A stretch of 64,000 nucleotides of DNA, from assembly GCA_033853925.1 (NCBI GenBank), contig JAWOLC010000052.1, forward strand, positions 20 through 64,019, read 5' to 3'. This DNA is from Candidatus Eiseniibacteriota bacterium. GTDB taxonomy: Bacteria; Eisenbacteria; RBG-16-71-46. A program made the translations under genes and the position numbers. Shown here one piece after another: positions 8,754-63,813 of this stretch (position 1 is the stretch's first letter; each line of letters starts with the position of its first letter). The notes under the pieces were generated by a model, which was given only the letters and a program-made list of their open reading frames with translations, made no database searches and was not told the origin of the DNA.

Positions 8754-8762
8754 TCCCGCCCG

Positions 8763-14487: not shown

Positions 14488-14552
14488 GCACAGCGAGGCG
14501 CGGCTCGGGACCCTGTACGGGGAGTCGGTCAACGGTCGTTCCGGGCGGCCGG

Positions 14553-30330: not shown

Positions 30331-30622
30331 GGCCTGGCGCCCCGTGCGCCGCGGGCACGGAGATCGCTGCCGCAGCGACCTCGGCCGCGTGAGCCCGAAC
30401 GCCCTGCCTCGCCGCCACGAGGCGCGGCCCACCACTGCGAGACGCTGGGCTCGCGGGTTGCGCTTCGAGGCGACCGACATCCGGCTGGGGTAAGATATCG
30501 TCGTGCGTGACTGCGGGCCCGAGGCTCGGGGGATCGCCGTGCCTCACGCCCGGTTCCAGCGCTGGGCGCGCCTCTGGATCGTCCCGGCCGACCAGGGGGA
30601 GCGGAGGAGAGCGGAGAGGAAG

Positions 30623-32092: not shown

Positions 32093-32341
32093 GAGGCACG
32101 AAGGCGTCGAGGCGTTCGGCCGCCAGGCGAAGCGCCGCGCTCTCCCTCGCGGCACACGCGGCTTGCCGCAGGGCCGGGGCTCGCGTAGCCTGACCGCCGC
32201 GCGTGGTCGTCCGCTCGCGTGGCCGTGCCGTCCGCCGGTTCCCGGCAGCGCGCCGTGCCGGCGGCTCCCGCGACGGAGAGCCAGAGGCGCCCCGCGAGCC
32301 TCCACCGCGCGGGTTCGAGATCACGTCGGGAGACCAGGCAG

Positions 32342-37052: not shown

Positions 37053-37723
37053 CGGAGCAGGGTGAAGAACGCCTCGAACGCGTCACGCCACCCGATCTTC
37101 TTGCCCTGGGCGCGAGTGCGGTAGTGGAAGTGGATGGGCACCTCGAGGATGCGCTCCCCCCGGCGGGCCACGCGCGCGGTCACCTCGGGGCAGAACTCGA
37201 AGCGCTCGCAGCGCAGGGGGAGAGACTTGAGGAGGTCGGCGCGGAAGGCCTTGTAGCCGGTGGCTTCGTCGGTGAGCCGCAACCCGTACAGCGCGTTCGC
37301 CACGAAGTTCAGGACGAGCACGCCCAGCTTGTAGTGGGTGAACGGCAGGTCGTTGCGCGGGTCCAGGTAGCGGGAGCCGTAGACCACCTTGGCCTCCCCG
37401 AGCGCGATGGGCTCCACGAGCCGCGGATAGTCCTCCGGGTCGTATTCGAGGTCGGCGTCCTGGACGATGACGATGTCGCCCTTCGCCTCGGCCAGCGCGC
37501 TGCGGATCGCCGCGCCCTTGCCCCGGTTCCTGGCATGGACGAGGAGGCGGATCGGCAGCCTCGCGGCGAGCCGGGCCAGCAGCTCGCGCGTCCCGTCGGT
37601 GGAGCCGTCGTCCACGACGATGATCTCCTTGTCCAGCGGCACGGCCACCACGCGCTCCAGGAGCCGCTCCACCGTGGAGCGCTCGTTGTAGGCCGGCACG
37701 AGGATCGAGAGCAGCGGGGCCAG
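37034..37723 (-). CDS. Glycosyltransferase family 2 (DPM1-like), probable CTG start
   Basis: ORF 37034..37699 begins at GTG inside the conserved LSILVPAYNE strand; an AAGGAG SD lies 7 nt upstream of an in-frame CTG at 37723, giving (M)APLLSILVPAYNE. Confidence 0.7.
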   Translation of the reverse strand: MAPLLSILVPAYNERSTVERLLERVVAVPLDKEIIVVDDGSTDGTRELLARLAARLPIRLLVHARNRGKGAAIRSALAEAKGDIVIVQDADLEYDPEDYPRLVEPIALGEAKVVYGSRYLDPRNDLPFTHYKLGVLVLNFVANALYGLRLTDEATGYKAFRADLLKSLPLRCERFEFCPEVTARVARRGERILEVPIHFHYRTRAQGKKIGWRDAFEAFFTLLRYRVTD

Positions 37724-39045: not shown

Positions 39046-39546
39046 TTGAAGATCAGCGCACGTGTTCCCCGCCGGCAGTACGAGCGCGAGATCGCCCCCC
39101 GCAGCCTGCTGCGCACGCTCTGGCAGAAGTCCCTCCACATCCTGGCGCGCTTCTGCATCCCGCCCGGCCCGCGGCTCTGGCTCTATCGCGGCATGGGGAT
39201 CGCGATCGGCCGCCACGTCTTCGTGGGGCTCGACACCTGGCTCGACGACCAGTTCCCCGAGCTGATCCGCATCGAGGACGAGGTCACGATCTCCTTCCGC
39301 GTCATGGTCGTCGTGCACGACGACGCCCGGCGCATGGACCGGACGGCCCCGGGAGCGGGAGACGGCACGGTGGCGCCGGTGGTGCTGGAGCGGGGCTGCT
39401 ATCTCGGCGCCGGCTGCATCATCCTCCCCGGCGTCACCGTGGGGCGCGGGGCCGTGGTCGGCGCGGGAGCCGTCGTGACCCGGGACGTGCCCCCCGGCAA
39501 GCTGGCGGTTGGCGTGCCGGCCCGTGTCCTCAAGGACGTGGGTTGA
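39046..39546 (+). CDS. Hexapeptide-repeat acetyltransferase (WcaF/WbbJ-like), TTG start
   Basis: ORF 39046..39546; AAGGAG SD about 9 nt before TTG; hexapeptide repeats in the C-terminal half. Confidence 0.75.
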   Translation: MKISARVPRRQYEREIAPRSLLRTLWQKSLHILARFCIPPGPRLWLYRGMGIAIGRHVFVGLDTWLDDQFPELIRIEDEVTISFRVMVVVHDDARRMDRTAPGAGDGTVAPVVLERGCYLGAGCIILPGVTVGRGAVVGAGAVVTRDVPPGKLAVGVPARVLKDVG

Positions 39547-48412: not shown

Positions 48413-50328
48413 GACGGCTCGCTCGGCCGCAGCGAGGCCAGCGGCGCCCCCAGCTCTTCTCGCGGCCGGTCCAGGTAGGTCCGGGCCCACAGCTCGAGGC
48501 AGACCAGCACCCAGGTCTGACGCGTGCGGCGCTCGTCCCTGGAGCCGCTGTCGCCGAGCTGCCGCTCGATCGCGGCCGTGTCCAGCCAGCCCCGGCGCCG
48601 GGTGACGGGATCCAGGAGCACCTCCCGCGCCAGCCGCGAGAAGCCGCCCCCGAACCAGTGCACGAGCGGCACGCCGAAGCCCTGCTTGCCGCGGGCCACG
48701 ATCTCCGGGGGCAGCAGCGGGCGGGCACACTCGCGCAGGATCCACTTGCCCACGTTCCCCCGCAGCTTAAGGTGGAAGGGAATGCGCGCCGCGAACTCCT
48801 GCAGCGGATGGTCGAGGAGCGGCTCGCGCGATTCCAGCGAGTGGATCATCGTCGTCCGGTCCACCTTGGCCATCACGTCGTCGACCAGGTAGGTCTGAGC
48901 GTCCAGGGGCAGGAGGGCGGGAATCTCCCCGAGACCCGCCGCCGCCGCGCGGTGGATCGCTCGCGGCGTGGCCCCCGCGTCGTAGTCGGCGACGGCCGCC
49001 CGCAGCTCCGGCGTCAGCATCGCCGCCAGCTCGAGGGGCGGGAAGGTGGCCTCGACGTGCAGGTGCCGCGCGCCGACATCCATCGCCACGCGCCGGAGCT
49101 TGCGCCCCAGCGGGTGATCGGGATGCATCCAGCCGGCCGGCCGTGCCAAGCCCCGGCGCAGGGCCGCCGGGAGGAAGTCCAGAGCCGCGTAACGCCGGGC
49201 CCACGCGTAGGTGGAGTAGCCGCCGAACGTCTCGTCGCCACCATCGCCCGAGAGGCTCACGGTGACGTGCCGCCTGGCCATCTGCGCCAGGTAGTACATG
49301 GGGATCATCGAGGCGTCGGCGTGCGGCTCGTCCATCTGCCAGATCAGGGTCGGCAGGAGCTCGAGGGCGTGCGCCTTCACGACCAGCTCGTGGTGCTCCG
49401 TGCCGAGGTGCCGCGCCACCTGCCGGGCGTGCTCGACCTCGGTGAAGTCCTCCTCCTCGAAGCCGATGGTGAAGGTCTTCACCCGCTCCGGGGCCACCTG
49501 CTGCATGAGCGCGACGACCACGCTGGAATCCAGGCCGCCGGAGAGAAACGCCCCCAGGGGAACGTCGGAGTGCAGGCGCAGGCGCACGGCCTCCCGGAGC
49601 AGGCTCGTGAGGCGCTCGCGATACCAGTCCTCGGGATGGCCGGCGTCCACTTCCGTGGGGAGCTGCCAGTAGCGCTCCAGCCGCGCCCCGTTCGCGTCGC
49701 AGATCAGCCGGTGGGCTGCCGGCAGCTTGCGCACGCCGCGCCAGATCGTGCGGGGCTGCGCCACGTACTGGTACGAGAGGTAGTCGGCCACGGCACACTC
49801 GTCGATCTCCCGCGGGATCGAGGGGTCCAGCATCAGGCCCTTGAGCTCCGAGGCGAAGACGAGGCGCCGCCCGTCGTCGTGATAGTAGAGGGGCTTCACC
49901 CCGAAGCGGTCTCGCCCGAGCACCAGCCGCCGCCGCCGGCGATCGAAGAGGCCGAAGGCGAACATGCCGCGCAGGCGGCTGAACATCTCGTCGCCGTACT
50001 CCTCGTAGAGGTGGAGCAGAGCCTCGGTGTCGCTCGTCCCCCGCAGGCGGTGGCCGCGAGCCACCAACCCGGGAGCGAGGTCGGGCCAGTCGTACAGCTC
50101 GCCGCTGTAGACGACCCAGACGCTCTCGTCCTCGTTGGCCATGGGCTGGCTCCCCGTCGGGCTCAGGTCGAGGATGGCCAGCCGCCGATGGGCGAAGGCC
50201 ACGTCCCCGTCCACCCACGTTCCCGCGCCGTCCGGACCGCGGTGCCGCATGGCCCACGCCTGCCGCTCGAGCAGAACGGAGTCGGCCGCCCCACCCCCAT
50301 AGTGGAAGACTCCGCTAATCCCGCACAC
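48409..50328 (-). CDS. Asparagine synthetase B-family glutamine amidotransferase (exosortase/EPS-locus-associated type)
   Basis: ORF 48409..50328; MCGISG N-terminal nucleophile Cys; SGGLDSS PP-loop. Confidence 0.9.
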   Translation of the reverse strand: MCGISGVFHYGGGAADSVLLERQAWAMRHRGPDGAGTWVDGDVAFAHRRLAILDLSPTGSQPMANEDESVWVVYSGELYDWPDLAPGLVARGHRLRGTSDTEALLHLYEEYGDEMFSRLRGMFAFGLFDRRRRRLVLGRDRFGVKPLYYHDDGRRLVFASELKGLMLDPSIPREIDECAVADYLSYQYVAQPRTIWRGVRKLPAAHRLICDANGARLERYWQLPTEVDAGHPEDWYRERLTSLLREAVRLRLHSDVPLGAFLSGGLDSSVVVALMQQVAPERVKTFTIGFEEEDFTEVEHARQVARHLGTEHHELVVKAHALELLPTLIWQMDEPHADASMIPMYYLAQMARRHVTVSLSGDGGDETFGGYSTYAWARRYAALDFLPAALRRGLARPAGWMHPDHPLGRKLRRVAMDVGARHLHVEATFPPLELAAMLTPELRAAVADYDAGATPRAIHRAAAAGLGEIPALLPLDAQTYLVDDVMAKVDRTTMIHSLESREPLLDHPLQEFAARIPFHLKLRGNVGKWILRECARPLLPPEIVARGKQGFGVPLVHWFGGGFSRLAREVLLDPVTRRRGWLDTAAIERQLGDSGSRDERRTRQTWVLVCLELWARTYLDRPREELGAPLASLRPSEPS

Positions 50329-52894
50329 GTGCCGCCTCCGCCGCCGCCACGCTCCCTCGCGGCGCCAGGAGCCGCAGGCTGCCCACGGCCCTCCCCGCGA
50401 AGTAGTCCTGGTCGAAGAAGTAGTCCGAGAGCCTGAAGTTCGCGAAGACCGGCGAGCGGATCATGCGCACGCGCACGACGTACTCGCCGGGAGCCACGTC
50501 CCTGGGCACCGCCACCGAGAACTCGTCACGCACGACCTGGTCGGGCCGCCAGAGATCCACCCCGTAGATCCCTCCCACGGGGAGATGGTCGTCCCGGAAG
50601 CGCAGGCGCTCGTGGAGCCGCCTCTCCAGCAGCTTCCGCCAGGGCTTCCCCAGGAACGCGGGAGGACTCCAGCCCGCGGGCAGGGGGCGGTCGAAGCGCA
50701 CGGCCACGGTGTAGGAGCCCGGCGGCATCGGCCCCGGCGCGCGCCAGTCCACGGCGCAGCGAAGCGTGTCGCCGGGCCGAGCCCGCTCGGGACGGAGCGC
50801 GAAGCCCACGATGGCCGGAAGAGCCGCGGAGCGAGACTCCGGCGCCAGCGCGTCTCCCGCCGTCACCGGCCGCACGAAGGGCCGCGGCGCCGGTGGACTG
50901 GCCAGCCGGTCCAGCCCGCGCGGGCGCACGCGGTAGACGACCACGCCGCGCAGGTCCGCCAGGCGCTCGAAGGCCCCGGGGGCCGAGTCCAGGCGCGCGC
51001 GCTCGGCGGCGTACCACGAGCGAGTCGGGGTCCAGTACAGGAGCGGGGCGGCATCGCCCAGCCGGCCGTCGAGCACGATCACGCTCACGCCGTACCGCCC
51101 GATCACGTCGCGCATCCGCGCCCACGGCTCGTAGGGGTCGAGCGCGTCGCGCGTGTCCAGGATCCGCCGCAGGGCCAGCGAGTCGTTCGGCGAGCTGTGC
51201 TGGTCCACGATGGCGACGACGTATCGCCCCGTCATCATGGGCACCATGTACGACGTGGCCAGGTCCGAGAGCACGACGTCGTCGGGCGGCAGGTGGGCGT
51301 TCATCCACGCGAAGACGTCCCCCCAGCGCCGGGGATCGTACTCGCGCCTGGCCTGCTGGAGCGGCTCGGGGGCCAGGAGCACCGTGGCCGCATCGCGCGC
51401 GGGCGCGGCGAGCAGCACCACCGCGAGCGCCAGCACCACGCCCGCCGCCGCGCGCCGCGCCCACGGGCCGGTCGCGGCCACGCGCGCGGCCAGCTCGGGC
51501 AGCAGCCAGCCGAGAATGCCCGCGAGGGGCACGAGCCAGATCAGCCGCATCAGCAGGTAGCCCAGGCGAGGCTGGAGCAGGGCGACGACCGGCGGGTCGT
51601 ACATGATCAGGCCCACGGCCAGGGAGGAGGTCAGCAGGTAGAGCACGGCGGGGTTGTGCCTCCCGCGCGCCCACAGCCATGGCCAGGCGAGCGGCACCAG
51701 CACCCAGGCCTCGCCCATGTGGGTCCAGAGCGCTCCGATCGTGACCACTCGCAGGGTTCCGACCAGGGTCAGCAGCCCCTGCGGCTCCGTATGGATGATG
51801 TTCGTGGGCGCGTACGCCTGTCCGGCGCGCATGACGACGTAGGGCAGGCATGCCGCGGCCATCAGCAGGACCGTGGGAACGAGCCGGCGCAGGTCGGGGC
51901 CGACCCGCCGGTCCCGCAGCAGGAGGCCGAGCGCGAGCGCCGAGAACACCACCGCGAAGTGAACGGCCGCGAACACGTGCGTCGCCACGGCCGCGAAGCC
52001 GAGGATCGCCGCCGAGACGCGCGTCCCGCGGGCGCGCATCCGGAGGTCTGCCAGGACCGCGACCACGGCCGCCAGCGCGAGCTGATCGCCGAAGTGGGAG
52101 GCGAAGGCCATCTGGCGCAGCTCCTCGGACCACAGGCCTCCGCCGAAGGTGAGGAGGAGCGCCCACGCGGCCAGTCCGGCGCCGATCGGCCCGCGGCAGA
52201 GGTACCCCAGCCCGGCCACGGTGAGCACGAAGAAGGGCACGATGAAGCTCCCGAGCCAACGCCAGGACTCGAGCGGGTCCACGGCCGCGAGCCGCGTGAT
52301 CAGCGCGATGACGACGTGCCAGACTCCCTTGCGCGGGTCGGCGCCCATGCGGCCCGCGTCACGGAAGAACGCGTCGGTGGGAAACGCCTGGCCGGTGAGC
52401 AGCATGCGCCGCAGCGTGCCCACGTGGTCGGGCGTGTCGGTGCCGTATCCCGTCGGCGGGCCGATGCTCCCCGCGGTCCAGGCCGCCACGCCCGCCGCCA
52501 GCAGCACGGCCAGCACGGCCCAGCGAGGCAGCGTGGGCGCCCCGTCCGGCCAGGGGACGCGCCCGCGCCAGACCACGACGCCCCAGAGCGCGGCGTTGGC
52601 CGGGAGCATCCAGAGCGTCAGGGGCAGGAAGCTCGGGACGAGCGTGTGCGCCAGCAAGGCCAGCGCCGAGGCCCAGGCCACCCCGAAGCCGAGCGCCCAG
52701 CCGGCGGCCAGCCAGGATCCTCCCGGCGGCCGGGCTCCCAGGGCGACGAAGGCCCAGCCGGGAACCAGGACGAGCACGCCGAAGGCCAGCGCCACCCGCA
52801 CGGGACCCGGCAGGGCGGCTCCCGCCCCCGCCAGCAGAGCGGCGTGGAACGCCAGGCTGGCGAGGCCAAGAGCCAGCGCTCGCGCTCGGGTCAT
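50315..52894 (-). CDS. Large polytopic membrane protein with C-terminal periplasmic domain (paralog C, distant from A/B)
   Basis: 860 aa from MTRARALALGLASLAF of ORF 50315..53053; DTPDHVGTLRRMLLTGQAFPTD aligns with the D-x-W-x-H-x-G...G-x-P-x-D motif of A/B; ATGA overlap with the upstream stop. Confidence 0.7.
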   Translation of the reverse strand: MTRARALALGLASLAFHAALLAGAGAALPGPVRVALAFGVLVLVPGWAFVALGARPPGGSWLAAGWALGFGVAWASALALLAHTLVPSFLPLTLWMLPANAALWGVVVWRGRVPWPDGAPTLPRWAVLAVLLAAGVAAWTAGSIGPPTGYGTDTPDHVGTLRRMLLTGQAFPTDAFFRDAGRMGADPRKGVWHVVIALITRLAAVDPLESWRWLGSFIVPFFVLTVAGLGYLCRGPIGAGLAAWALLLTFGGGLWSEELRQMAFASHFGDQLALAAVVAVLADLRMRARGTRVSAAILGFAAVATHVFAAVHFAVVFSALALGLLLRDRRVGPDLRRLVPTVLLMAAACLPYVVMRAGQAYAPTNIIHTEPQGLLTLVGTLRVVTIGALWTHMGEAWVLVPLAWPWLWARGRHNPAVLYLLTSSLAVGLIMYDPPVVALLQPRLGYLLMRLIWLVPLAGILGWLLPELAARVAATGPWARRAAAGVVLALAVVLLAAPARDAATVLLAPEPLQQARREYDPRRWGDVFAWMNAHLPPDDVVLSDLATSYMVPMMTGRYVVAIVDQHSSPNDSLALRRILDTRDALDPYEPWARMRDVIGRYGVSVIVLDGRLGDAAPLLYWTPTRSWYAAERARLDSAPGAFERLADLRGVVVYRVRPRGLDRLASPPAPRPFVRPVTAGDALAPESRSAALPAIVGFALRPERARPGDTLRCAVDWRAPGPMPPGSYTVAVRFDRPLPAGWSPPAFLGKPWRKLLERRLHERLRFRDDHLPVGGIYGVDLWRPDQVVRDEFSVAVPRDVAPGEYVVRVRMIRSPVFANFRLSDYFFDQDYFAGRAVGSLRLLAPRGSVAAAEAARVRD

Positions 52895-53622: not shown

Positions 53623-54599
53623 GACGCCGCCGCCTCCCTGCCGCGCGCCTCGGGAGACACGAGCATCCGCAGGCATCTGCGCATCAGGCGAAGGACGTGC
53701 GCGGTCCGGGCCCGGCGGGGCGGGGCGAAGGGCGCCAGCAGCGCGTTGCGGAGGAGCGACAGCCCGAGGCTCGCCAGGAGCGCCAGCTTCAGCAGCGCAC
53801 CCGCCGGCCCCGTGAACGTCAGGTCCCAGAACACGCCGATCGAGCGCAGGCTGAGCAGGGAATTCGTCTCGACGTCCAGCTCACGGCTCGTGCCCCCCAG
53901 ATGCACCACCTCGGCCGCCGGCTCGTAGCGCAACGTGAGGCCATGACGCCGTGCGCGAAGGCTCCACTCCACGTCATCGTAGTTGAGCACCAGCCGCTCG
54001 TCGAGCAGCCCGACCCGGGCCAACGCCTCGCGGCGGAAGAGGATGCAGGCTCCCGACAGCACGTCCGGCACGCCCGGCTGCTCGTACCACCGCCGCGGGT
54101 AGGTGCCGCGCACGAAGGGGAGCAGGGCCGGCACCAGGGCGGGGAGCTGGGTGTGGCCGAGGAGCGAGGGCAGGAAGCGCGGCGCCCGGCGAGCGCAGAC
54201 CCACTGCGTGGAGCCGTCCGCGTGGAGGAGACGGGGGCCCACCGCTGCGGCCGACGGCTCGCCCTCCAGCCGGCGGACGAGCGCCCCGAGCGCGTCGCCG
54301 CGGAGCAGCGCGTCCGAGTTGAGCGCCAGCACGTAATGCCCGCGGGCCTCGCGGAGACCCTGGTTGCACGCGGGCGCGTAGCCGCGGTTCTCGCCGTTCA
54401 CGACGAGGCGCGCCGCGGGCCAGCGCTCCGCCACGCGCCGCGCCGAGCCATCGCTCGACGCGTTGTCGATCACGAGCAGCTCGCGCGCTATCTCCGGCGA
54501 GCTGGCGAGCGCGTCCTCCAGGCAGCGCACCAGCAGGTCGCGCGTGTTGAAGCTCACGACCACGATGCTGACGAGGGGCGCGCCGCTGGCCTCAGGCAT
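53619..54599 (-). CDS. Glycosyltransferase family 2
   Basis: ORF 53619..54599; VSIVVVSFNTRD, DNASSDGS and DxD region. Confidence 0.8.
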   Translation of the reverse strand: MPEASGAPLVSIVVVSFNTRDLLVRCLEDALASSPEIARELLVIDNASSDGSARRVAERWPAARLVVNGENRGYAPACNQGLREARGHYVLALNSDALLRGDALGALVRRLEGEPSAAAVGPRLLHADGSTQWVCARRAPRFLPSLLGHTQLPALVPALLPFVRGTYPRRWYEQPGVPDVLSGACILFRREALARVGLLDERLVLNYDDVEWSLRARRHGLTLRYEPAAEVVHLGGTSRELDVETNSLLSLRSIGVFWDLTFTGPAGALLKLALLASLGLSLLRNALLAPFAPPRRARTAHVLRLMRRCLRMLVSPEARGREAAAS

Positions 54600-56064
54600 C
54601 CGAGCCGCCTCCGGCGGGCTGCAGCCGCGCCAGCAGGACCTCGCGAATCCGCTCGATCTCGCGGCGGGTGATGGAGGTCAGCGCCCAGGCGAGGGCGATC
54701 GCGATGCCCACGAGGCGCAGGCGCAGATCGGGGAACGGCAGGGAGGCGACGGCCACGACCGCCACCGTGCTCGAGAGCAGCAGCCGCGTGTTCTCCGCCG
54801 TGAAGCGGAAGCCGTTCACCCGGCGCAGGTAGACCACCATCATGACGAAGGCCACCGCCCACGAGACCGTGTGCCCCCAGATGGCTCCCTGCAGGCGGGC
54901 CGCCGCCGGCACGCCGAAGAAGATCCCCGCGAACACCCCGTACTGGACGAGCGACATCACGTTGCGCGCGCGGAAGCGCTCCTGGGGAAGCATGGGGAGC
55001 TGGACCGCGAAGACCACGGCCTTGACGAGGTCGCCGACCATCTGCACGGGAAACAGCGCCGCCGCGTCCAGGAATCGGCTCGAGTACAGCACCCGGATCA
55101 TCACGTCCCGCGACAGGAGGAGCGCGAGGATGCCGGCCGTGGAGAAGAGGAGCGCCACGCGCGTAGCGTTGTTGACCTCCTGATTGATGGCCCCGAGCTC
55201 GCGGAGCTGGCTGATGCGGGGGAACGAGTACGCGGTCATCGCGTTCAGGGGAATGGCCAGGTACTGGGTGGAGACGGCGAAGAGCACCTGGTAGATCCCG
55301 TTCCGGGTCAGGCCCAGGTCGTGGACGATCTGGGCGCGCAGCACGAAGGGGAACATCAGGGTGAGGACGAACGGCGGCAGGTTCGCGTAGCCGAAGCGGA
55401 AGAGGCTGGTGATGGCCGGGCGGTCGAAGGGGGCTTCGTCCACGGCCCGCCTCATCTCGTGCCCCATCGCTCGGTCGGCGGTCCAGCGGGCGACGGCCCA
55501 GGCCAGGATGGCGAAGACGAAGAGGTGGATCGTGGCTCCCTTGAGCCCCCAGGCGAGCACCAGCGGAGCCAGAACGGCGAGCCCCAGCACCGAGGTCAGC
55601 ACCAGAGCCCGCGAGTAGGCGCGCATGTCGAGCCCGGCCTGCACGTAGGTCAGCCAGGTCTGGCTCTGCACCAGGAAGGGAATGCCCAGGATGGGCGGGA
55701 TGAGCAGGACCAGGTAGGCCGGCGAGTTCGTGGCCCACAGGGTGATCGGTCGGATGAAGAGCAGGCAGAGCGCCGTCGCCCCCACGGACAGCCACAGGAA
55801 GGTGCGTGCCGAGGTGGCCACGAAGCGGGCCTGCCGGTTCGGATCCCCGGTGCGATAGAGGGCGAAGTAGCGCAGCGCCCCGGTCTGCAGCCCGAGGGGC
55901 ACGATCCCGGCGGCCACGGTCTGCAAGCCGAAGAGCTGCGCGAACAGACCGATGCCCGTGGGCCCGAGGGTCACCGCCAGCAGCTTGTTGCGGAGAACCG
56001 ACACCCCCGTGTTCGCGACGGAGGAGAGGCCGATCAGGAAGACCGAGCGAACGAGCGCCCTCAT
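54592..56064 (-). CDS. Wzx-type flippase (polysaccharide biosynthesis protein, MOP superfamily)
   Basis: 490 aa from MRALVRSVFLIGLSSVANTG (GGGAGA SD) of ORF 54592..56241; about 12 transmembrane helices. Confidence 0.8.
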   Translation of the reverse strand: MRALVRSVFLIGLSSVANTGVSVLRNKLLAVTLGPTGIGLFAQLFGLQTVAAGIVPLGLQTGALRYFALYRTGDPNRQARFVATSARTFLWLSVGATALCLLFIRPITLWATNSPAYLVLLIPPILGIPFLVQSQTWLTYVQAGLDMRAYSRALVLTSVLGLAVLAPLVLAWGLKGATIHLFVFAILAWAVARWTADRAMGHEMRRAVDEAPFDRPAITSLFRFGYANLPPFVLTLMFPFVLRAQIVHDLGLTRNGIYQVLFAVSTQYLAIPLNAMTAYSFPRISQLRELGAINQEVNNATRVALLFSTAGILALLLSRDVMIRVLYSSRFLDAAALFPVQMVGDLVKAVVFAVQLPMLPQERFRARNVMSLVQYGVFAGIFFGVPAAARLQGAIWGHTVSWAVAFVMMVVYLRRVNGFRFTAENTRLLLSSTVAVVAVASLPFPDLRLRLVGIAIALAWALTSITRREIERIREVLLARLQPAGGGSDA

Positions 56065-57533
56065 GCCGTCTCCCGGGGCGCCGTCCACAGCGTGGCGACC
56101 TTGTCCAGGCCGGCGCCGCGGCCCAGCCAGGCCAGCACGGGGAGCGCCAGCAGGATCACTGCGGCCGACCGGACCAGAGCCGCCAGCACCGGCCGCGGCG
56201 GCCCCAGCTCGCAGGCCACGAACGCCGCCGCGCCGAGCCACAGCGTGGGCAGGAAGCTCGAGGCGGCGAAGGACAGGCGCGCGCGCGGCGCCGCATGGAG
56301 GTCACGCGCCGCGAGCGCCACGATGACCACCGCGAACAGTCCGTAGCCCGCGCAGGCCGCGGCGGCGACCGGGAAGGGCCGGGGCGCGCGCGCGGCCACG
56401 CCGAACACGACGGCGGCGGCGAGGGCGGCGCACAGGACGCCGGCCGCGAGCAGGGCGCGGGCGTGTCCCCGCCCCAGCAGCCAGTAGCCCGGCAGCGTGG
56501 CCGCCGAGAGCAGCAGGGCGGCCATCGCCAGCAGCCGGACGGACCTCGCGGCCGTCACGAACTGCGGCAGGAACAGCTCCAGCACGGGCGTCACCCAGAT
56601 CATGGACACCGCCACGGCCACGGGCAGCAGCAGGGACAGGGTCCGTTGCGCGCGCGTCACCTCGTGCCGGGTCCGCTCCAGATCGCGAGCCCCGTCCGCG
56701 GCCGCCACGATGCGGGGATAGAGGACCGCCGCCGCGGCCTCGGGCAGGTAGAACACGAGCCCCGCCGCCATGAGGCCCACGCTGTAGGCACCCAGGTCTT
56801 CCGGATGGCCGAAGCGGATGAGGGCGAGCCGATCCACGGAGCGGAGGACGAGCGACACCCCGTAGAAGGCGAACACCACGAATCCCCCGCGCACCAGCGC
56901 CCGCGAGCGGGCCAGCGCGCCGAGCCGGAAGGGCACGTCGGGGGCCGCGCGGCGCACCCAGACCAGGGCCACGGCCGTGCCCGCGAGCCAGCCCCACAAG
57001 AGCCCCGGGATCCCGAAGCGGTGCACGAGCGCGATCCCCAGCGCCCCTCCCACCAGGACCTGGGCGGCGGTCGAGCCGCTGACCGCATCGAATCGGCCGC
57101 GCGCGCGCAGGACCGAGCCGACGTACTGCAGCACGAGCTGGAGGAGCCCGGCTGCGAGCATGAGGAGCGGCGCCTGCCAGCCGAGCCCGCGCAGGATCCG
57201 GGGGTGCCCGTTCGCCAGCATGACGATCACGGCGAGCGCGAAGAGGGCCCCACCCCCCACCACCATGTTCCAGGTCCCCGCCAGGAGCCGCCGCGATTCC
57301 TGGGCCTCACCTCGCGCGCTGGTCGCGGGCAGGCGGAGATCCAGCCCCTGCAGGGCCCCGCAGGGAGCGTACGCGCTGTAGTCCAGGATCAGGTTCAGCG
57401 CGTTCCAGCTCCCGAAGCCCGCGGGTCCGAGCGTGGCCGCCGCCACCACACCCCGAGCGAGCAGCATCGCCCGCGAGACGTACTGGCTCGCGGCCAGCCC
57501 CAGCATGTCGCGGACGAAACGGCGCCCCGTCAC
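56061..57533 (-). CDS. MOP-superfamily polysaccharide flippase (Wzx-like), second copy
   Basis: ORF 56061..57533; about 12-14 transmembrane helices; ATGA overlap with the downstream gene. Confidence 0.7.
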   Translation of the reverse strand: MTGRRFVRDMLGLAASQYVSRAMLLARGVVAAATLGPAGFGSWNALNLILDYSAYAPCGALQGLDLRLPATSARGEAQESRRLLAGTWNMVVGGGALFALAVIVMLANGHPRILRGLGWQAPLLMLAAGLLQLVLQYVGSVLRARGRFDAVSGSTAAQVLVGGALGIALVHRFGIPGLLWGWLAGTAVALVWVRRAAPDVPFRLGALARSRALVRGGFVVFAFYGVSLVLRSVDRLALIRFGHPEDLGAYSVGLMAAGLVFYLPEAAAAVLYPRIVAAADGARDLERTRHEVTRAQRTLSLLLPVAVAVSMIWVTPVLELFLPQFVTAARSVRLLAMAALLLSAATLPGYWLLGRGHARALLAAGVLCAALAAAVVFGVAARAPRPFPVAAAACAGYGLFAVVIVALAARDLHAAPRARLSFAASSFLPTLWLGAAAFVACELGPPRPVLAALVRSAAVILLALPVLAWLGRGAGLDKVATLWTAPRETA

Positions 57534-57661: not shown

Positions 57662-58867
57662 GTGAGCGCTCCGCCCGCTCCTCTTGCCTCCCGCGGCGGC
57701 GCTCCCGTGCGCTCCGCCTTCCTGCCCTTCTCGCGTCCCTCGATCGGCCCGCGGGAGAAGGAGCGCGCGCTCGAAGCGCTGGACTCCGGCTGGATCACGA
57801 CCGGACCCCTGGCTCAGGAGCTGGGGCGCCGCGTGGCGGCGCTCGCGGGCGCGCGCCACGGCTTGGCGGTCAACTCGGCCACGGGCGCCCTGCATCTCGC
57901 GCTCCTCGGGCTGGGGGTGGGGCCGGGGGACGAAGTCGTGACCTCGGCCTACACGTTCGTGGCCTGCGCGAACGTCATCGAGCACGTCGGCGCGCGCGTG
58001 GTCCTGGCCGACGTCGAGGCGGACACGCTCTGCATGGACCCGCGCTCGCTGGAGCGGGCGCTGGGTCCGCGCACCCGGGCGATCCTGCCGGTGGACTACG
58101 CCGGCCATCCCTGCGACCTCGAGGCCATCGGGGCCCTGGCGCGCGCCCGCGGCCTGCCCGTGATCGAGGACGCGGCGCACTCGCTGGGGGCGGCGATCGG
58201 AGAGCGTCCCGTGGGCTCCTTCTCCACGGTGACCGCCTTCTCCTTCTACGCCACGAAGAACGTCACCACCGGCGAGGGCGGGGCCGCCGTCACCGACGAC
58301 GAGGCCCTGGCCGAGCGCATGGAGCAGTACGCCCTGCACGGCATGAACCGCGACGCCTGGCGGCGCTACTCGGACACCGGCTCCTGGTACTACGAGGTCA
58401 CGACGCCGGGGTTCAAGTACAACCTGAGCGACGTGCTCGCGGCTGTCGGCCTGGCCCAGCTCGAGCGCTTCGCGGACATGCAGCGCCGGCGCCGCGAGCT
58501 GGTGGCGCGCTACGACGACGCCCTGGCGGGAATCCCCGAGGTGCGCCGGCCGCGCTCGCGCCCCGGGGTGGTGCACGCCCATCACCTGTACCCCATCGCC
58601 CTGGAGCTGGACCGCCTGAGCTGCGACCGCGCCCGCTTCATCGAGGAGCTGCGGGCGGAGAACATCGGCGCCTCCGTTCACTTCATCCCCATCCACTTCC
58701 ATCCCTACTTCCGCGACCGCCTCGGGCTCGGAGCCGGCGCGTTCCCGGTCGCCGAGGAAGCCTACCGGCGCGCGGTCACCCTGCCGCTCTTCCCCGACAT
58801 GTCGGCGCAGGACGTCGCCGACGTGGCGAGCGCCGTGGGCAAGATCGTCGCCCACTACCGCCGCTAG
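57662..58867 (+). CDS. ArnB-like sugar aminotransferase (DegT/DnrJ/EryC1 family), second copy
   Basis: ORF 57662..58867; FLPFSRPSIG...ALDSGWITTGP and FSFYATKNVTTGEGG closely match ArnB; an alternative GTG start at 57707 gives M-RSAFLPFSRP. Confidence 0.85.
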   Translation: MSAPPAPLASRGGAPVRSAFLPFSRPSIGPREKERALEALDSGWITTGPLAQELGRRVAALAGARHGLAVNSATGALHLALLGLGVGPGDEVVTSAYTFVACANVIEHVGARVVLADVEADTLCMDPRSLERALGPRTRAILPVDYAGHPCDLEAIGALARARGLPVIEDAAHSLGAAIGERPVGSFSTVTAFSFYATKNVTTGEGGAAVTDDEALAERMEQYALHGMNRDAWRRYSDTGSWYYEVTTPGFKYNLSDVLAAVGLAQLERFADMQRRRRELVARYDDALAGIPEVRRPRSRPGVVHAHHLYPIALELDRLSCDRARFIEELRAENIGASVHFIPIHFHPYFRDRLGLGAGAFPVAEEAYRRAVTLPLFPDMSAQDVADVASAVGKIVAHYRR

Positions 58868-58974: not shown

Positions 58975-59982
58975 TCACGTGGTCACCTCCTGCGCCCGGT
59001 TGAGCGAGGCCAGGGAGAGGCCCTCGCGCCGGAGGTAGTAGAGGCCCACGACCGTGACCGGCAGCCACTGCGCGGCCCAGTAGAACCACGAGAAGGAGCT
59101 GGCCACGTCGCGGCTGCGGAAGCCGAACAGCGTCAGGCCCATGACGCACGCGGCGTTCATGGTGCCCACGTAGCCCGGCGCGGCGGGGGCCATGATGGCG
59201 ATGGCGGTGATCACGAGCAGGGTGAAGCCGGCGTACCAGGGCAGGTGGATGCTCAGGGCCTCGAGGCTCCACTGCAGGGCGACGCCGAAGCAGCCGAACA
59301 TGATGAAGGAGAGCAGGAAGACCCAGAGCAGGCGGGGCACGTCGCGGAAGAGGCTCAGGCCCTCCATGAAATGGTCCAGCATGACCTCGAGCTTGGTCCG
59401 GTAGCGCACGGGGAGCCAGCGCACGAGGGCGTGGACCAGGCGGCGCGCGGCCGTGGGCGTGCGCTCGAGCAGGACGAGCACCAGCGTGAGCAGGATGGTC
59501 AGGAGGATGAGGGCGATGGCTCCGCCGCGGATGCTCCGGCCGGCCTCGCTGTGGGCCTCGATGGGGTGCACGAGGAGCGTGAGGGCCAGGATCCCCAGCA
59601 GGGTCAGCATGTCCACGGCGCGCTCGACGACCACCGTCGCCAGCACCATGGTCCCCGAGCACTTCTCGCGGCGGGCGAGGGCCCAGGCCCGCACGAACTC
59701 GCCGAGCCGCAGAGGCAGGACGTTGTTGGCCATGAAGCCGATCATGGTGGCGCTGAACAGGCTGTCCAGGCTGGCCTGGCGGGGCGCGGCCAGGAGCGAA
59801 CGCCAGCGCAGGGCCCGCAGCCAGAAGGAGAACAGGGTGAGCCCCATGACCCCGGCGAAGAGCAGCAGATTGGACTGGCGCAGCGCCTCGATCACGCGGG
59901 GAAGGCTCACGCCCCGCATGGAGTACCAGATGGCGACGATGGAGATCGCCAGGCCCAGAGCGAAGTGCAGCCCGCGCTTCAT
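58975..59982 (-). CDS. UPF0104/flippase-like integral membrane protein (lysyl-PG-synthase TM-domain-like)
   Basis: 335 aa from MKRGLHFALGLAISIVAIWY of ORF 58975..60429; 8 transmembrane helices. Confidence 0.7.
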   Translation of the reverse strand: MKRGLHFALGLAISIVAIWYSMRGVSLPRVIEALRQSNLLLFAGVMGLTLFSFWLRALRWRSLLAAPRQASLDSLFSATMIGFMANNVLPLRLGEFVRAWALARREKCSGTMVLATVVVERAVDMLTLLGILALTLLVHPIEAHSEAGRSIRGGAIALILLTILLTLVLVLLERTPTAARRLVHALVRWLPVRYRTKLEVMLDHFMEGLSLFRDVPRLLWVFLLSFIMFGCFGVALQWSLEALSIHLPWYAGFTLLVITAIAIMAPAAPGYVGTMNAACVMGLTLFGFRSRDVASSFSWFYWAAQWLPVTVVGLYYLRREGLSLASLNRAQEVTT

Positions 59983-60368
59983 CCGCGCTCCGCGGGGGCG
60001 CCCGCCGGCCCGCCCCCCCGCCGGAGATCCTCGAGCTCGCTGCGCAGCAGGGCCAGCTCCCGCGTCAGCGCGTGGTTGTCCTGTCCCAGCCGGGACAGCT
60101 TGACGGAGAGATGGAGCAGCATGGCCAGGCTGAAGCCGATGCCGAAGGCGAAGACCGTGGAGCTCGCGCCCATCATGCCCAGCGCGCGCGTGATCCAGGT
60201 GAGCAGCGGCGTCGAGAAGCCCAGCGTGGCCACGAGCACGGTGCAGATGACCCACAGGAGCGAGTACTCCTCCGAGAGCTTGCGGCGGCGCACGAGGTCC
60301 AGCACGTACAGCACGAGCAGGACCGCGCCGATCGCCATGATGACCTGGGTTCTCGAGAGAAACGTCAT
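59979..60368 (-). CDS. DUF2304-family small membrane protein
   Basis: ORF 59979..60368; three transmembrane helices and a C-terminal amphipathic helix. Confidence 0.65.
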   Translation of the reverse strand: MTFLSRTQVIMAIGAVLLVLYVLDLVRRRKLSEEYSLLWVICTVLVATLGFSTPLLTWITRALGMMGASSTVFAFGIGFSLAMLLHLSVKLSRLGQDNHALTRELALLRSELEDLRRGGGPAGAPAERG

Positions 60369-60377
60369 GGAGGCTCC

Positions 60378-61088
60378 TCAGAGCTGGGCCGGCCGCTTCA
60401 GCAGCGCCATCAGCGAGGCCAGCAGACACTTGTAGGGGTAGTACAGCGATCGCCCGAGCGTGTAGAAGGATCGTCCCGCCCGCCGCTCACGCATCTCGAC
60501 CGGCACCTCCTCGAAGCGGAATCCGCGGCGGCCCAGGGTAATGAGGAGCGGGGCGTCGGGGAAGTCCCTCGGGAAGTCCTGCTGGCACACCTCCATGACC
60601 GCCCGGGAATAGGCGCGAAAGCCGGAGGTCGTGTCGGTGATCCGCCGTCGGAGCACGGCGCTCACGAGGTGGGAGAAGAGCACCATGCCGAGCCGGCGCG
60701 CGACCGGGGCGCGGTAGCCCGTGCGCCGCAGGTAGCGGGAGCCGATGCTCACGTCACAGCGGCCGGCGGCCAGCGGCTCGACCAGGGCGCCGAGGAAGGC
60801 CGGGTCGTGCTGCCCGTCCGCGTCGAGCTGGACCCCCACGTCGTAGCCGTGCTCCACGGCCCAGCGGAAGCCGGACTGCAGGGCCCCGCCCACCCCCAGG
60901 TTGACGGCGTGCCGCAGGACGGGCGCACCGCGCTCGCGCGCGACCCGCGCCGTGGCGTCACGCGAGCCGTCGTCCACCACGAGCGCGTCCATCTGGGGCG
61001 CGAGCGCGTGCAGCTCGGCGAGCGTGGCCGGCAGGCTCTCCTGCTCGTTCAGCGCGGGAATGATCACCAGCACGCGGGGAGCGCTCAC
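60378..61088 (-). CDS. GtrB/DPM1-like polyprenyl-phosphate glycosyltransferase (GT2)
   Basis: ORF 60378..61088; VLVIIPALNEQ, VDDGSRD and DADGQH motifs. Confidence 0.85.
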   Translation of the reverse strand: MSAPRVLVIIPALNEQESLPATLAELHALAPQMDALVVDDGSRDATARVARERGAPVLRHAVNLGVGGALQSGFRWAVEHGYDVGVQLDADGQHDPAFLGALVEPLAAGRCDVSIGSRYLRRTGYRAPVARRLGMVLFSHLVSAVLRRRITDTTSGFRAYSRAVMEVCQQDFPRDFPDAPLLITLGRRGFRFEEVPVEMRERRAGRSFYTLGRSLYYPYKCLLASLMALLKRPAQL

Positions 61089-62671
61089 GAGGGTCTCCGC
61101 GACTCGGCCAGGCGGGCGAAGAAGCCCAGGAACCAGACGAGGCTGCCGCGCACGAAGCGGGTCCAGGCGGCCTCGAGCGGCACCTCCTCCAGCTTCTCCA
61201 GGTCCTGGCGCCGCACCAACCCGAAGGCGAACAGGCCCACCGCCGCGGGGAAGAGCAGGACGACATGGAAGGCGAAGAGGGCGAAGACGTGCCCGCGCAG
61301 GCTCCAGTCGACGAGCAGCGTGATCCCGACCAGGGGCAGCACCAGCCCCAGGGTCGTCAGCGTCGCCCGCGACCGCTCGCGCGCCTCCTCCGGCAGCAGG
61401 CGGGTGCCCACGAAGAGCGCGGCCGCGTAGGACACGACCGCGCCCACCAGGTTGGACCAGGCCGCGCCGATGACGCCCAGGGTGGTCACCAACAGGAAGT
61501 AGGCCCCGAACTCGCCCACGAACTTCACGACCGCCAGGACCAGCTCGATGCCGGGGCGACCCAGGGCCCGGAACAGCATGGTGAAGGGCTGCTGGGCGGT
61601 GCGGGCGAGCGGAACCAGCGCGAGGACGCGCAGCAGCGGCACCGCGGGCAGGAAGAGTCGGCTGCCGAGCACCCGGGTCAGCTCGCGGGCGAACACGAAC
61701 AGGCCCAGCGAGACGACGAAGGCCAGCGCCTGGACCAGGCGGTGCGCCTGCGAGAACGCCAGGCGCAGCCGCACCCGCTCACCCCGAGCCACGAGCCAGG
61801 TGAGCGAGGGCAGCAGCGCGGAGGGGATGGCGTTCACGAACTCGCTGAAGCGCTCGACGGTCTGGTAGGCGAAGGTGAAGTACCCCAGCAGGGTCGTGTC
61901 GAACAGGCCGCCCACGATGATCTTGCTGAGGTTCTGCCCCGAGGTGAAGGCGATGCGCCCTCCGAGCAGCGGGAGGCAGTAGGCGAACATGCCGCGGAGC
62001 AGGCCGCCCCAGGTACGCTCGGGCGCCGGCGCCTCCCGCTCCTCCGGCTGCCGCAGGATCCAGAAGCAGACCGCGGTCTGCATCAGGCCCAGGCTCACCG
62101 AGAGCCCCGCGAAGCCCACGGCCAGAGGCACCAGGCCTTGCCGGCTCCACCACAGCGCCCCCACCAGGACGGTCTTGGCCACATGGAACACCACGGCCAG
62201 GACCGAGACCCAGCGGAATTGCTGGAGGCCGAAGAGCGTGGAGCGACTCGTCGTCGCCAGGCCGTCGAAGGCCACGGTGACCACGAGGATCGGCACGAGC
62301 ACGCGCAGCTCGGGAGTCTCCCAGCGCCCGGCCAGCCAGGGGAGGATCGCCAGCAGCACCGCGCTGGCCAGCAGGCCCAGCGAGACCTTGACCGCGAGCG
62401 CCAGCACGTGGGCGCGGCGGAGGGTCACGCCCAGCCGGCGTGCCTCGTACTCGGCGGCGTAGCGCTCGAGATACATCTCGAAGTTGCCCGTCGCCGTCGC
62501 CGCCATCCCGGTGAAGGCGAGGGCCAGGGTCATGATGCCCAGCTTGGTGGGCCCCAGCCAGCGCATCAGCAGCAACGTGTAGGCGACACCGGAGAAGATC
62601 GCGGCCGCCTTCTCGACGGCCAGCCAGAACGCGCCGCGCGAGACGCTGTGCGCGATGCCGCGGGGGTTCAT
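61085..62671 (-). CDS. Wzx-type flippase (MOP superfamily), third copy
   Basis: 528 aa from MNPRGIAHSVSRGAFWLAVEKAA of ORF 61085..62998. Confidence 0.75.
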   Translation of the reverse strand: MNPRGIAHSVSRGAFWLAVEKAAAIFSGVAYTLLLMRWLGPTKLGIMTLALAFTGMAATATGNFEMYLERYAAEYEARRLGVTLRRAHVLALAVKVSLGLLASAVLLAILPWLAGRWETPELRVLVPILVVTVAFDGLATTSRSTLFGLQQFRWVSVLAVVFHVAKTVLVGALWWSRQGLVPLAVGFAGLSVSLGLMQTAVCFWILRQPEEREAPAPERTWGGLLRGMFAYCLPLLGGRIAFTSGQNLSKIIVGGLFDTTLLGYFTFAYQTVERFSEFVNAIPSALLPSLTWLVARGERVRLRLAFSQAHRLVQALAFVVSLGLFVFARELTRVLGSRLFLPAVPLLRVLALVPLARTAQQPFTMLFRALGRPGIELVLAVVKFVGEFGAYFLLVTTLGVIGAAWSNLVGAVVSYAAALFVGTRLLPEEARERSRATLTTLGLVLPLVGITLLVDWSLRGHVFALFAFHVVLLFPAAVGLFAFGLVRRQDLEKLEEVPLEAAWTRFVRGSLVWFLGFFARLAESRRPS

Positions 62672-63813
62672 CGGCCCAGCTCCGCCAGCTCGCCTTCGAG
62701 GTAGCCGCGCACGTCCTTGAGGTGGCGCAGCGCCTCGGGCAGGGGGCGGTTGGCGAAGAGCAGCGCCGCCATGTCCGCGTGCCTCGGGTCGTAGCCGTGC
62801 ATGGCCGCCAGCGGGCGCGAGCCCATGAACGAGGGCACCATCAGCACGCCCGGATCGAGCAGGAAGATGTCGTCCCCGTAATCCCGCCCGGGGAACAGCG
62901 CCCCTTCCCGCTCCAGCTCGGCATCCGTGAGCCAGTGGCCGCCGGGCTGCGCGCCCAGGGCCGCGCGCACCTCCGCCCGCGCCCCGTCCGACCGCCACCA
63001 GAAGCGCGCCAGGGTGGAGTCGAAGAAGGGGACGAAGTCACGCGGCCACCGGCAGGAGCATCTCGCCACCACGCCCATCAGGTCGACGCTGCGGCCAACC
63101 CTCACCATCCCGTGGTCGGAGAGCAGCACGAGCCGAAGGTCCTCCCCGCGCCGCTCCGCCGCCCGGACGACGCGTCCGAGCCAGGCGTCGTAGAGTGCGA
63201 GCCGCTCCCGGGCCCCGGGGCCGTCGGGGCCCTCCTGATGCAGCACGGCGTCGAGCTTGCCAGTGTAGCAGAAGAGGAAATCCTCCGGCCCGCTCTCGAG
63301 GGCTCGCTCCACCGCCGCCAGGCTCTCCGACTCCGGCATTCGCCAGCTCCAGCCCTGCCAGAGGAGGCCGAGGCGCTCCGGCGCGCTCCACAGGCTGTCG
63401 CCGGGCAGGCCGTGGGCCGCGAAGACGTCCTCGCGCTCGGCCAGGTCGAATTCCTCGAGCAGCTCGCGCGGCACCTCGTAGAGGCTGAAGTAGCCACGCA
63501 CCCCGCGCGCCACCACGAGCCGCGTGAGCAGCACCGAGAGCTTCCAGCTCCGGCGCAGGCGAGGCGGCAGCCAAGCGAGCCGGCGGAAGCCGCGGAAGGG
63601 CGTTCCGGCGCCGGTGGCCCGGCGGTACATGAGCCAGCGCCCGTGCTCGTGCGGCAGCCGGCCGGTGAACAGGGTCGGCAGCGCGCCGGCGCTGAAGCCG
63701 AGGATCGTCTCCAGCCGGCGCCGATGCGGCAGCATGCCGGCGAAGCCGGGCGAGCGGCACGCCAGCTCCCAGCCCAGGGCATCCACGAGCAGGACCACCA
63801 GCCGTCGTCTCAC
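62668..63813 (-). CDS. Alkaline-phosphatase-superfamily metalloenzyme (type I phosphodiesterase/nucleotide pyrophosphatase-like)
   Basis: From GTG 63813 (M-RRRLVVLLVDALGWE) behind a GAGGAG SD in ORF 62668..63978; metal-ligand region SDHGM. Confidence 0.7.
   Translation of the reverse strand: MRRRLVVLLVDALGWELACRSPGFAGMLPHRRRLETILGFSAGALPTLFTGRLPHEHGRWLMYRRATGAGTPFRGFRRLAWLPPRLRRSWKLSVLLTRLVVARGVRGYFSLYEVPRELLEEFDLAEREDVFAAHGLPGDSLWSAPERLGLLWQGWSWRMPESESLAAVERALESGPEDFLFCYTGKLDAVLHQEGPDGPGARERLALYDAWLGRVVRAAERRGEDLRLVLLSDHGMVRVGRSVDLMGVVARCSCRWPRDFVPFFDSTLARFWWRSDGARAEVRAALGAQPGGHWLTDAELEREGALFPGRDYGDDIFLLDPGVLMVPSFMGSRPLAAMHGYDPRHADMAALLFANRPLPEALRHLKDVRGYLEGELAELGR

Follow-up and report, generated by a model that had tools for sequence, protein, structure and literature searches.

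A GacI/GacJ-type synthase pair coupled to a candidate UPF0104 flippase in an Eisenbacteria exopolysaccharide locus

Introduction

How does a sugar that has been loaded onto a polyprenyl phosphate get to the membrane's outer leaflet, and could a protein of the UPF0104 family be involved? This question is raised by three genes, encoding a family 2 glycosyltransferase (GT2), a DUF2304 protein and a UPF0104 protein, that lie at 58975..61088 on the minus strand of a 64,000-nucleotide stretch of DNA from an uncultured soil bacterium of the Candidatus Eiseniibacteriota (contig JAWOLC010000052.1), hereafter called the window. To our knowledge, the membrane crossing of monosaccharide-charged undecaprenyl or dolichyl phosphate is unproven for GtrA, for ArnE/F and for the Wzx-like proteins GacK and AglR. 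For the mycobacterial PpgS/Rv3632 pathway the flippase is explicitly described as 'as yet unidentified' (PMC9671496). Based on gene order, family assignments, structure models and the neighbourhoods of related genes, the locus is best read as a four-component glycosylation system of known type, with an MprF-type flippase module in addition that looks like a split archaeal AglD.

Organisation of the three genes

The interval 58975..61088 holds exactly three minus-strand genes, and the three-gene set listed in a preliminary description of the locus is real, as its coordinates match three genes with coding third-position G+C and Pfam matches. They encode a GT2 catalytic subunit of 236 amino acids (aa) (60378..61088; PF00535, 82 bits, E 6e-23), a DUF2304 protein of 129 aa (59979..60368; PF10066, 83 bits, E 2e-23) and a UPF0104/LPG_synthase_TM protein of 335 aa (58975..59982; PF03706, 167 bits, E 1e-48), with Pfam scores well above the gathering cut-offs and a third-codon-position G+C of 0.94-0.98 in the three frames. 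By hydropathy the GT2 protein has no transmembrane (TM) helices, the DUF2304 protein has three and the UPF0104 protein about eight.

The tight coupling of the three genes, also claimed earlier, can be read directly from the DNA as a 9-nt spacer and an ATGA overlap. The DUF2304 ATG lies 9 nt past the GT2 stop, with GGAG in front of it as a Shine-Dalgarno sequence, and the UPF0104 ATG overlaps the DUF2304 stop as ATGA. The GTG start of GT2 overlaps, as GTGA, the stop of a gene for a Wzx/MOP-family flippase that lies upstream (61085..62671, minus strand; PF01943 71 bits, PF13440 57 bits and an NCBIfam MOP flippase match). This Wzx flippase, the usual flippase partner of such pairs, had been missed before. 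Its start overlaps by 4 nt the stop of a gene for a type I phosphodiesterase/nucleotide pyrophosphatase family protein of the alkaline-phosphatase superfamily (62668..63798, minus strand; PF01663 57 bits), the first gene of the operon. The GT2, DUF2304 and UPF0104 genes form the distal end of this five-gene translationally coupled run.

The GT2 and DUF2304 synthase pair

The GT2 protein carries the motifs DDGS and DADGQH. Its best NCBIfam models are PpgS (96.3 bits), AglJ, Dol-P-hexose transferase and ArnC. In the PDB it has no solved relatives other than the Pyrococcus furiosus DPMS (5mlz) and ArnC. These matches agree with the polyprenyl-phosphate glycosyltransferase class to which the protein had been assigned, but the label 'GtrB-type' did not hold. 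As GtrB and ArnC have two C-terminal TM helices, the window protein was classified as a short-type polyprenyl-phosphate glycosyltransferase like GacI and PpgS and not as GtrB-like; at 236 aa and without TM helices it lacks both the C-terminal helix pair and the length of about 300-330 aa of the GtrB type. Likewise, the GtrA family PF04138 had no match in the operon or among the other window genes scanned, which were those outside 189..14532. Three sequence-level features of a GacI/GacJ-type pair were found: a GT2 protein of about 230-240 aa without TM helices, kinship to DPMS, ArnC and PpgS, and an adjacent downstream DUF2304 gene for a 3-TM protein. The score against the PpgS equivalog model NF058614 was 96.3 bits at a cut-off of 370, and judged from its sequence the protein is a relative of PpgS, not an orthologue.

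DUF2304 had been described as having no assigned function, which was mistaken: GacJ, Rv3632 and WpsB activate their partner GT2 proteins (10.1101/180810; PMC10821137; PMC9671496). GacJ of Streptococcus pyogenes is a DUF2304 protein that is purified together with GacI, whose apparent Km for undecaprenyl phosphate (Und-P) it lowers from 18.7 to 1.1 uM (10.1101/180810), Rv3632 stimulates PpgS (PMC9671496) and WpsB activates WpsA (PMC10821137). A complex in which the 3-TM protein serves as anchor for the soluble GT2 and sets its orientation is supported by an AlphaFold model and by the activity of a WpsB-WpsA fusion (PMC10821137). Besides its three TM helices, the window protein has a C-terminal amphipathic helix. 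A profile search with DUF2304 returned no solved relative, and tblastn against plasmids gave no match. Among library representatives, natural fusions of DUF2304 and GT2 occur in both orders (P0342, P0280 and P0331). The idea that DUF2304 itself forms part of a flippase was not borne out; it is an activator or anchor subunit of the synthase and is fused to GT2 elsewhere.

Homology and the published biochemistry of GacI/GacJ-type pairs strongly support, by analogy, that the GT2 and DUF2304 proteins would make a polyprenyl-phosphate sugar at the inner membrane face. The synthase pair is in this respect already understood, and DUF2304 is no orphan family.

Two other fusions were seen among the library representatives. 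P0388 (620 aa) joins a PMT_2 GT-C protein to a C-terminal DUF2304 in a natural fusion, which suggests that DUF2304 can also associate with a transferase that consumes the lipid-linked sugar. P0247 was considered as a DUF2304-UPF0104 joint unit; it matches both families only in part and shares 53% identity with the protein of the window, and it was left uncounted as most likely a frameshifted Eisenbacteria contig.

The UPF0104 protein

The UPF0104 protein scored 166.9 bits against PF03706 (cut-off 33.4) and 81.8 bits against TIGR00374, 'flippase-like domain' (cut-off 43.2). Searches of the PDB at the sequence level, with the single sequence or with a profile, gave nothing, and only the fold search gave MprF. 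The AlphaFold 2 (AF2) model had a pLDDT of 80, and its top six Foldseek matches in the PDB were all MprF (9goe, 9j8s, 9j8q, 7duw, 7f47 and 6lvf), with a probability of 1.0 and a TMq of about 0.5, followed by matches with a probability of at most 0.41. The aminoacyl-phosphatidylglycerol synthase domain of MprF proper is absent from this 335-aa protein, which has PF03706 only. Contigs retrieved as encoding the window UPF0104 protein were only 1.2-1.5 kb long and gave no gene context.

According to the model, the UPF0104 protein has the fold of the MprF flippase domain and is a probable candidate lipid flippase. The flippase candidacy put forward in the preliminary description is reasonable, as the model matches only MprF in the PDB, but as a new idea it does not stand, having already been published. 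The flippase role of the family rests on MprF, and Makarova in 2015 reportedly already annotated UPF0104 as a predicted flippase. By prediction the role has been extended to archaeal AglD, for its C-terminal domain, and to COG0392 as a whole (PMC5898192) as well as to 'PplT' proteins generally (10.1101/2022.03.11.483950), and the database name of COG0392 already reflects the flippase idea (quoted in PMC12713373). Three-gene operons in which a lipid glycosyltransferase is accompanied by a UPF0104 'flippase' have been described as hexSDF in Clostridioides difficile (PMC10128005) and gpgSDF in Pseudomonas aeruginosa (PMC12713373).

Distribution of the three genes

A DUF2304 alignment was used to scan 185,579 species genomes, and the best 80 loci were analysed. 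The query was a 15-sequence subset, the 68-sequence alignment being too diverse for a locus scan; the scan kept mostly Eisenbacteria loci, its ranking being relative to the query, and the 80 loci comprised 66 of the Eisenbacteria orthogroup and 14 distant ones. Denominators below are the loci with enough flank. UPF0104 lay directly downstream of DUF2304 in 57/57 species-level loci of the Eisenbacteria orthogroup, and in 39/57 the stops of the two genes lay 1001 or 1004 nt apart, as a 4-nt overlap would give. The neighbours in these loci were also stable, with Wzx in 54/58, a DegT-like aminotransferase in 49/51, a 490-aa membrane protein in 41/44 and the PF01663 gene upstream in 42/48.

For a second scan, of metagenomes, the consensus of the hidden Markov model was placed first in the DUF2304 alignment to remove the ranking bias. 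It gave a sample of 80 diverse DUF2304 loci with 32-69% G+C and 60 membrane-protein neighbours within 4 kb. GT-C families prevailed among these neighbours (PMT_2 21, PMT 4 and GT87 4, counts that can overlap), followed by Polysacc_synt, that is Wzx, with 11-12 and MurJ-like proteins with 4. GT2-DUF2304 pairs are thus generally accompanied by a GT-C transferase and a Wzx-type flippase, the make-up of the lactococcal four-component system (PMC10821137) and of GacIJKL.

The co-occurrence check proposed in the preliminary description was thus run, with a divided outcome. Adjacency of GT2 and DUF2304 was confirmed: the gene next upstream of DUF2304 was a GT2 in 65/65 loci of Eisenbacteria and in 47/54 of the diverse metagenomic loci, but outside Eisenbacteria UPF0104 hardly ever accompanied the pair. 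The claim that the three genes recur as a set across genomes was contradicted by the counts, which include no test of recurrence in archaea: 57/57 in Eisenbacteria, 0/11 in distant genome loci and about 1/80 in metagenomic loci. The three-gene set is fixed in one phylum and rare elsewhere.

The single metagenomic case, L130 (43% G+C), from a second and unrelated lineage, encodes a UPF0104 protein 37% identical to that of the window in the same cluster as GT2-DUF2304, in another gene order. The order in L130:728-11211 is EamA-like small protein, PMT_2, UPF0104, Bac_transf, GT2, DUF2304, PMT_2, unknown and Wzx. Three flippase-candidate families, EamA-type (ArnE/F-like), UPF0104 and Wzx, are found together in this cluster.

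The distant genome loci included Anaerolineae, Solirubrobacterales, Planctomycetota, Bacillota, Latescibacterota, Thermoanaerobaculia and a second Eisenbacteria paralogue, and the Pfam families of their polytopic neighbours included Rhomboid, PMT_2, Polysacc_synt and others. Some loci of the Eisenbacteria type carried other labels (L023, L051, L059, L060, L063 and L066; Terriglobales, Limnocylindria, Methylomirabilota, Udaeobacter, Verrucomicrobiia and Saccharimonadaceae). A wide taxonomic spread on the strength of these labels was rejected, as the synteny was identical as far as the contigs extend and the identity 60-85%; judged by this likeness, they are probably mis-binned contigs in soil metagenome-assembled genome (MAG) sets.

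The second Eisenbacteria GT2-DUF2304 pair (L072, L073 and L077) is paralogous, at 44-46% identity. A DegT gene lies upstream of it in L072 and L073, both contigs ending near DUF2304. In L077 there is no UPF0104, and the pair is followed by an 846-aa protein with 11 TM helices and without family and by a 1128-aa relative of the window GT-C protein described below. In the Anaerolineae-type loci L076, L079 and L086 a convergent rhomboid protease gene flanks DUF2304, and L076, L086 and L132 encode proteins of 1430-1450 aa with 21-23 TM helices. A window-like GT2 adjoining DUF2304 was not detected in L076, L079, L086 and L132.

A predicted GT-C transferase at the locus

An 859-aa protein encoded at 50315..52894 on the minus strand had no match to a Pfam or NCBIfam family. 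Its AF2 model (pLDDT 93, pTM 0.93) showed a GT-C-fold glycosyltransferase with a C-terminal beta-sandwich. The top 23 Foldseek matches in the PDB were all GT-C enzymes (STT3, DPY19, AglB, AftA, ArnT and PglB), and in the fold search the beta-sandwich resembled the Wzt carbohydrate-binding domain. In the alignment of the protein D153, D156 and H157 are invariant; the loop that carries them follows a predicted TM helix at 124-144 and leads into a short helix at 154-167, a plausible position for the GT-C catalytic motif in the model. About 160 homologues were found, mostly named 'hypothetical' and some with a DUF6541 match, and an approximately 860-aa protein was present in 22/33 Eisenbacteria loci. 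Its predicted fold makes the protein a candidate for using the lipid-linked sugar on the outer side of the cytoplasmic membrane.

Two more genes of the window, at 39543..41573 and 42604..44661 (both plus strand), encode proteins of 676 and 685 aa that combine about 12 TM helices and a soluble C-terminal part. Neither could be placed in a family, save for a weak DUF6541 match of the second, and they are probably further unannotated GT-C-like transferases.

Genomic setting

The window (72% G+C) is one long glycan-biosynthesis island with many GT4 and GT2 transferases and sugar-nucleotide enzymes, and it also holds a Bac_transf initiating transferase, two PMT_2 GT-C proteins and a Wzy_C protein. 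Genes for Wza, Wzz and a kinase lie upstream in related contigs. The five-gene operon sits inside a conserved Eisenbacteria exopolysaccharide (EPS) or capsule locus, and close homologues of all three proteins came from MAGs named Candidatus Eisenbacteria.

Convergent with the operon lies a gene for a DegT/PseC/ArnB-like sugar aminotransferase (57662..58867, plus strand; PF01041 398 bits), which scored 378 bits with the PseC model and 372 bits with the ArnB model, both below the cut-offs, and probably supplies an amino-sugar nucleotide. By analogy to GacH-type enzymes, the PF01663 protein might attach a phosphate-linked substituent to the glycan or take one off. The 490-aa polytopic membrane protein (56061..57533, minus strand) has multiple predicted TM segments and a weak MOP-family signal (PF13440, 26 bits). 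Three MOP/Wzx-like membrane proteins are encoded within 8 kb, at 54592..56088, 56061..57533 and 61085..62671, all on the minus strand.

Discussion

The four components known from glycosylation systems of this kind, GT2, DUF2304, Wzx and GT-C (PMC10821137), are all present at the locus, with UPF0104 in addition. Taken as a whole, the reading that a GacI/GacJ-type synthase is combined with flipping by UPF0104 and transfer by the GT-C protein has, in our judgement, an even chance of being correct. In its well-supported first step, the soluble GT-A subunit would transfer a sugar from a nucleotide sugar to Und-P at the cytoplasmic face, with the 3-TM DUF2304 protein anchoring and orienting the catalytic subunit and raising its affinity for the lipid. 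This sugar is probably an N-acetylhexosamine or an amino sugar, given the conserved DegT neighbour and the repeated occurrence of DegT genes close to further DUF2304 pairs. The UPF0104 protein may then move, or help to move, the lipid-linked product to the outer leaflet, like a split AglD. We put this flippase role a little short of evenly balanced, because of the tight coupling to the synthase, the recurrence in L130 and the precedent of the AglD fusion. Finally, as fold and synteny suggest, the 859-aa GT-C protein would take the sugar or glycan off the lipid and attach it to an extracytoplasmic polymer, since GT-C proteins are the commonest membrane neighbours of DUF2304 genes and P0388 joins GT-C and DUF2304 in one chain. 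Precedents for a synthase with a UPF0104 partner are MprF, the AglD fusion, HexSDF and GpgSDF (PMC5898192, PMC10128005, PMC12713373, 10.1101/2022.03.11.483950). The stronger proposal, that UPF0104 proteins are dedicated polyprenyl-monophosphate-sugar flippases in a stoichiometric complex with a GacI/GacJ-type synthase, we offer tentatively, as one that may well be wrong.

Several points weigh against this reading. We know of no UPF0104 protein for which flipping of a polyprenyl-phosphate sugar has been demonstrated. The same operon also includes a coupled gene for a Wzx-type flippase, and Wzx is the proposed flippase in GacIJKL and WpsABGJ, so that a complete pathway does not require UPF0104. 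None of the 11 distant genome loci with enough flank had UPF0104, and PF03706 made up only one of the 60 metagenomic membrane neighbours, in about one of the 80 loci and not adjacent to DUF2304. As to the sugar, the PpgS cut-off was so far from reached that GalNAc (N-acetylgalactosamine) specificity is not transferable to the window GT2. Furthermore, the UPF0104 partner is dispensable for glycolipid synthesis in C. difficile and P. aeruginosa, and for hexSDF and gpgSDF the flipping step itself is unproven (PMC10128005, PMC12713373).

The Wzx protein at 61085..62671 could itself flip the Und-P-sugar in a canonical four-component system, with transfer by the GT-C protein and UPF0104 as an add-on that has another cargo or an accessory role, for example in general lipid homeostasis. 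We consider this unlikely on balance but a serious alternative: the Wzx gene overlaps GT2, stop on start, and occurs in 54/58 loci, and Polysacc_synt/MOP proteins, not UPF0104, are the typical flippase-like neighbours of DUF2304 pairs across lineages. The four-component scheme has been stated as such (PMC10821137), GacK has been modelled in this role (10.1101/180810) and AglR has also been proposed as a flippase. However, an EPS locus of the Wza/Wzc type needs a Wzx for its repeat unit linked to undecaprenyl diphosphate (Und-PP), to which this Wzx may be committed, and the retention of UPF0104 with DUF2304 in 57/57 loci suggests a role tied to the synthase. The two proposals are not mutually exclusive either, as AglD and the Wzx-like AglR coexist in one Haloferax pathway (PMC3871713), and UPF0104 and Wzx may both act, on different cargos, the one on an Und-P sugar and the other on the Und-PP repeat unit. 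A different question is whether the GT2 and DUF2304 proteins initiate a longer chain, as WpsA and WpsB do, so that the Und-P-sugar, rather than acting as donor of one sugar, is elongated in the cytoplasm into a repeat unit, flipped, polymerised and attached by the GT-C protein. This has the lactococcal precedent (PMC10821137) and fits a locus with several GT4 and GT2 transferases, a second GT2, a methyltransferase and MOP-like membrane proteins, but a separate Bac_transf protein (27805..28644) could initiate the main polymer, and we regard it as unlikely; it bears on the cargo rather than on the parts, and either flippase would fit it.

It is improbable that UPF0104 flips a glycerolipid-type glycolipid or an aminoacyl lipid, as considered for MprF, HexF and GpgF, and is unrelated to the GT2 product, its adjacency reflecting only a shared envelope function. 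All UPF0104 cargos with an experimental link so far are indeed glycerolipids (PMC10128005, PMC12713373, 10.1101/2022.03.11.483950), yet no glycerolipid glycosyltransferase (GT4 or GT28 of the monogalactosyldiacylglycerol (MGDG) type) and no deacetylase is coupled to UPF0104 here. The coupling is instead to a polyprenyl-phosphate-type GT2, in 57/57 loci, and in L130 UPF0104 is again found among Und-P-sugar genes. The original proposal, that DUF2304 and UPF0104 are a widely recurrent GtrA-like flippase unit working with GtrB homologues, accounts for the tight coupling of the three genes, but has been largely refuted and is now highly improbable: DUF2304 is a demonstrated activator of the synthase and is fused to GT2, not to UPF0104 (10.1101/180810; PMC10821137), the three-gene set is restricted to one lineage among the loci scanned and the GT2 is not of the GtrB type.

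Among known systems, the likeness is closest in the synthase to GacI/GacJ, EpaI/EpaJ, WpsA/WpsB and PpgS/Rv3632, which also combine a short TM-less GT2 with a following 3-TM DUF2304 protein, have DPMS/ArnC-type homology and cluster with a Wzx-type protein and a GT-C. The window pair is, however, distant from these in sequence (96 bits against 370 for PpgS), lies in an EPS locus of Gram-negative type in an uncultured phylum, and it alone has a UPF0104 gene that overlaps the DUF2304 stop. AglD of Haloferax volcanii shares the tie between a polyprenyl- or dolichyl-phosphate sugar synthase and a UPF0104 module, and in its pathway a Wzx-like protein (AglR) and a GT-C (AglS) likewise coexist (PMC3871713). 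The window system differs in being bacterial and clustered, aglD lying outside the agl cluster, and its GT2 and UPF0104 are not one polypeptide but separate genes with DUF2304 between them. MprF, hexSDF and gpgSDF also pair a lipid-modifying synthase with a putative flippase of the UPF0104/MprF type, and the TM domain of MprF is the fold match; their cargos are glycerolipids, their synthases aminoacyl-transferases or of the GT4/MGDG type, and a deacetylase is present, whereas the window synthase is a polyprenyl-phosphate GT2 and an aminoacyl-phosphatidylglycerol synthase domain is lacking. GtrA/B/C and ArnC/ArnE-F/ArnT follow the same logic, with a GT2 making an Und-P-sugar, a small putative flippase and a periplasmic polytopic transferase, but GtrB and ArnC have two C-terminal TM helices that the window GT2 lacks, and their flippase candidates are of other families (GtrA PF04138; ArnE/F EamA-type).

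An MprF-fold protein fixed to a synthase by a conserved 4-nt overlap throughout a phylum offers a concrete flippase candidate and a bacterial parallel to AglD. If a dedicated UPF0104 flippase is confirmed, the locus would be a bacterial split AglD and a clean three-gene system in which to demonstrate flipping of an Und-P-sugar. New are the phylum-wide MprF-fold gene on a GacI/GacJ pair, the negative co-occurrence elsewhere and the unannotated GT-C family; the function of the synthase pair was already known and the UPF0104 flippase idea is a database annotation. The practical value is modest, with the pair understood, the flippase idea annotated and the organism uncultured.

Other lipid-sugar genes in the window

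The GT2 gene had been counted as the third lipid-sugar synthase of the window. The two others named do look like such synthases: the protein of 29656..30330 (plus strand) is an AglJ/Dol-P-hexose-like short GT2 (116 bits) without TM helices, and that of 33529..34506 (plus strand) an ArnC/GtrB-like GT2 (155 bits) with two C-terminal TM helices. The count itself was too low, as there is a fourth candidate at 37034..37699 (minus strand), a short polyprenyl-phosphate-type GT2 with 112 bits to the AglJ model and no TM helices. The first two belong to a second lipid-sugar module of the window at 29656..35152 (plus strand), which also contains a PMT_2 GT-C (30539..32092), a DesI/PseC-like aminotransferase (32441..33529) and a PglD-like acetyltransferase (34493..35152). 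The Bac_transf protein of 27805..28644 is a phosphoglycosyl transferase.

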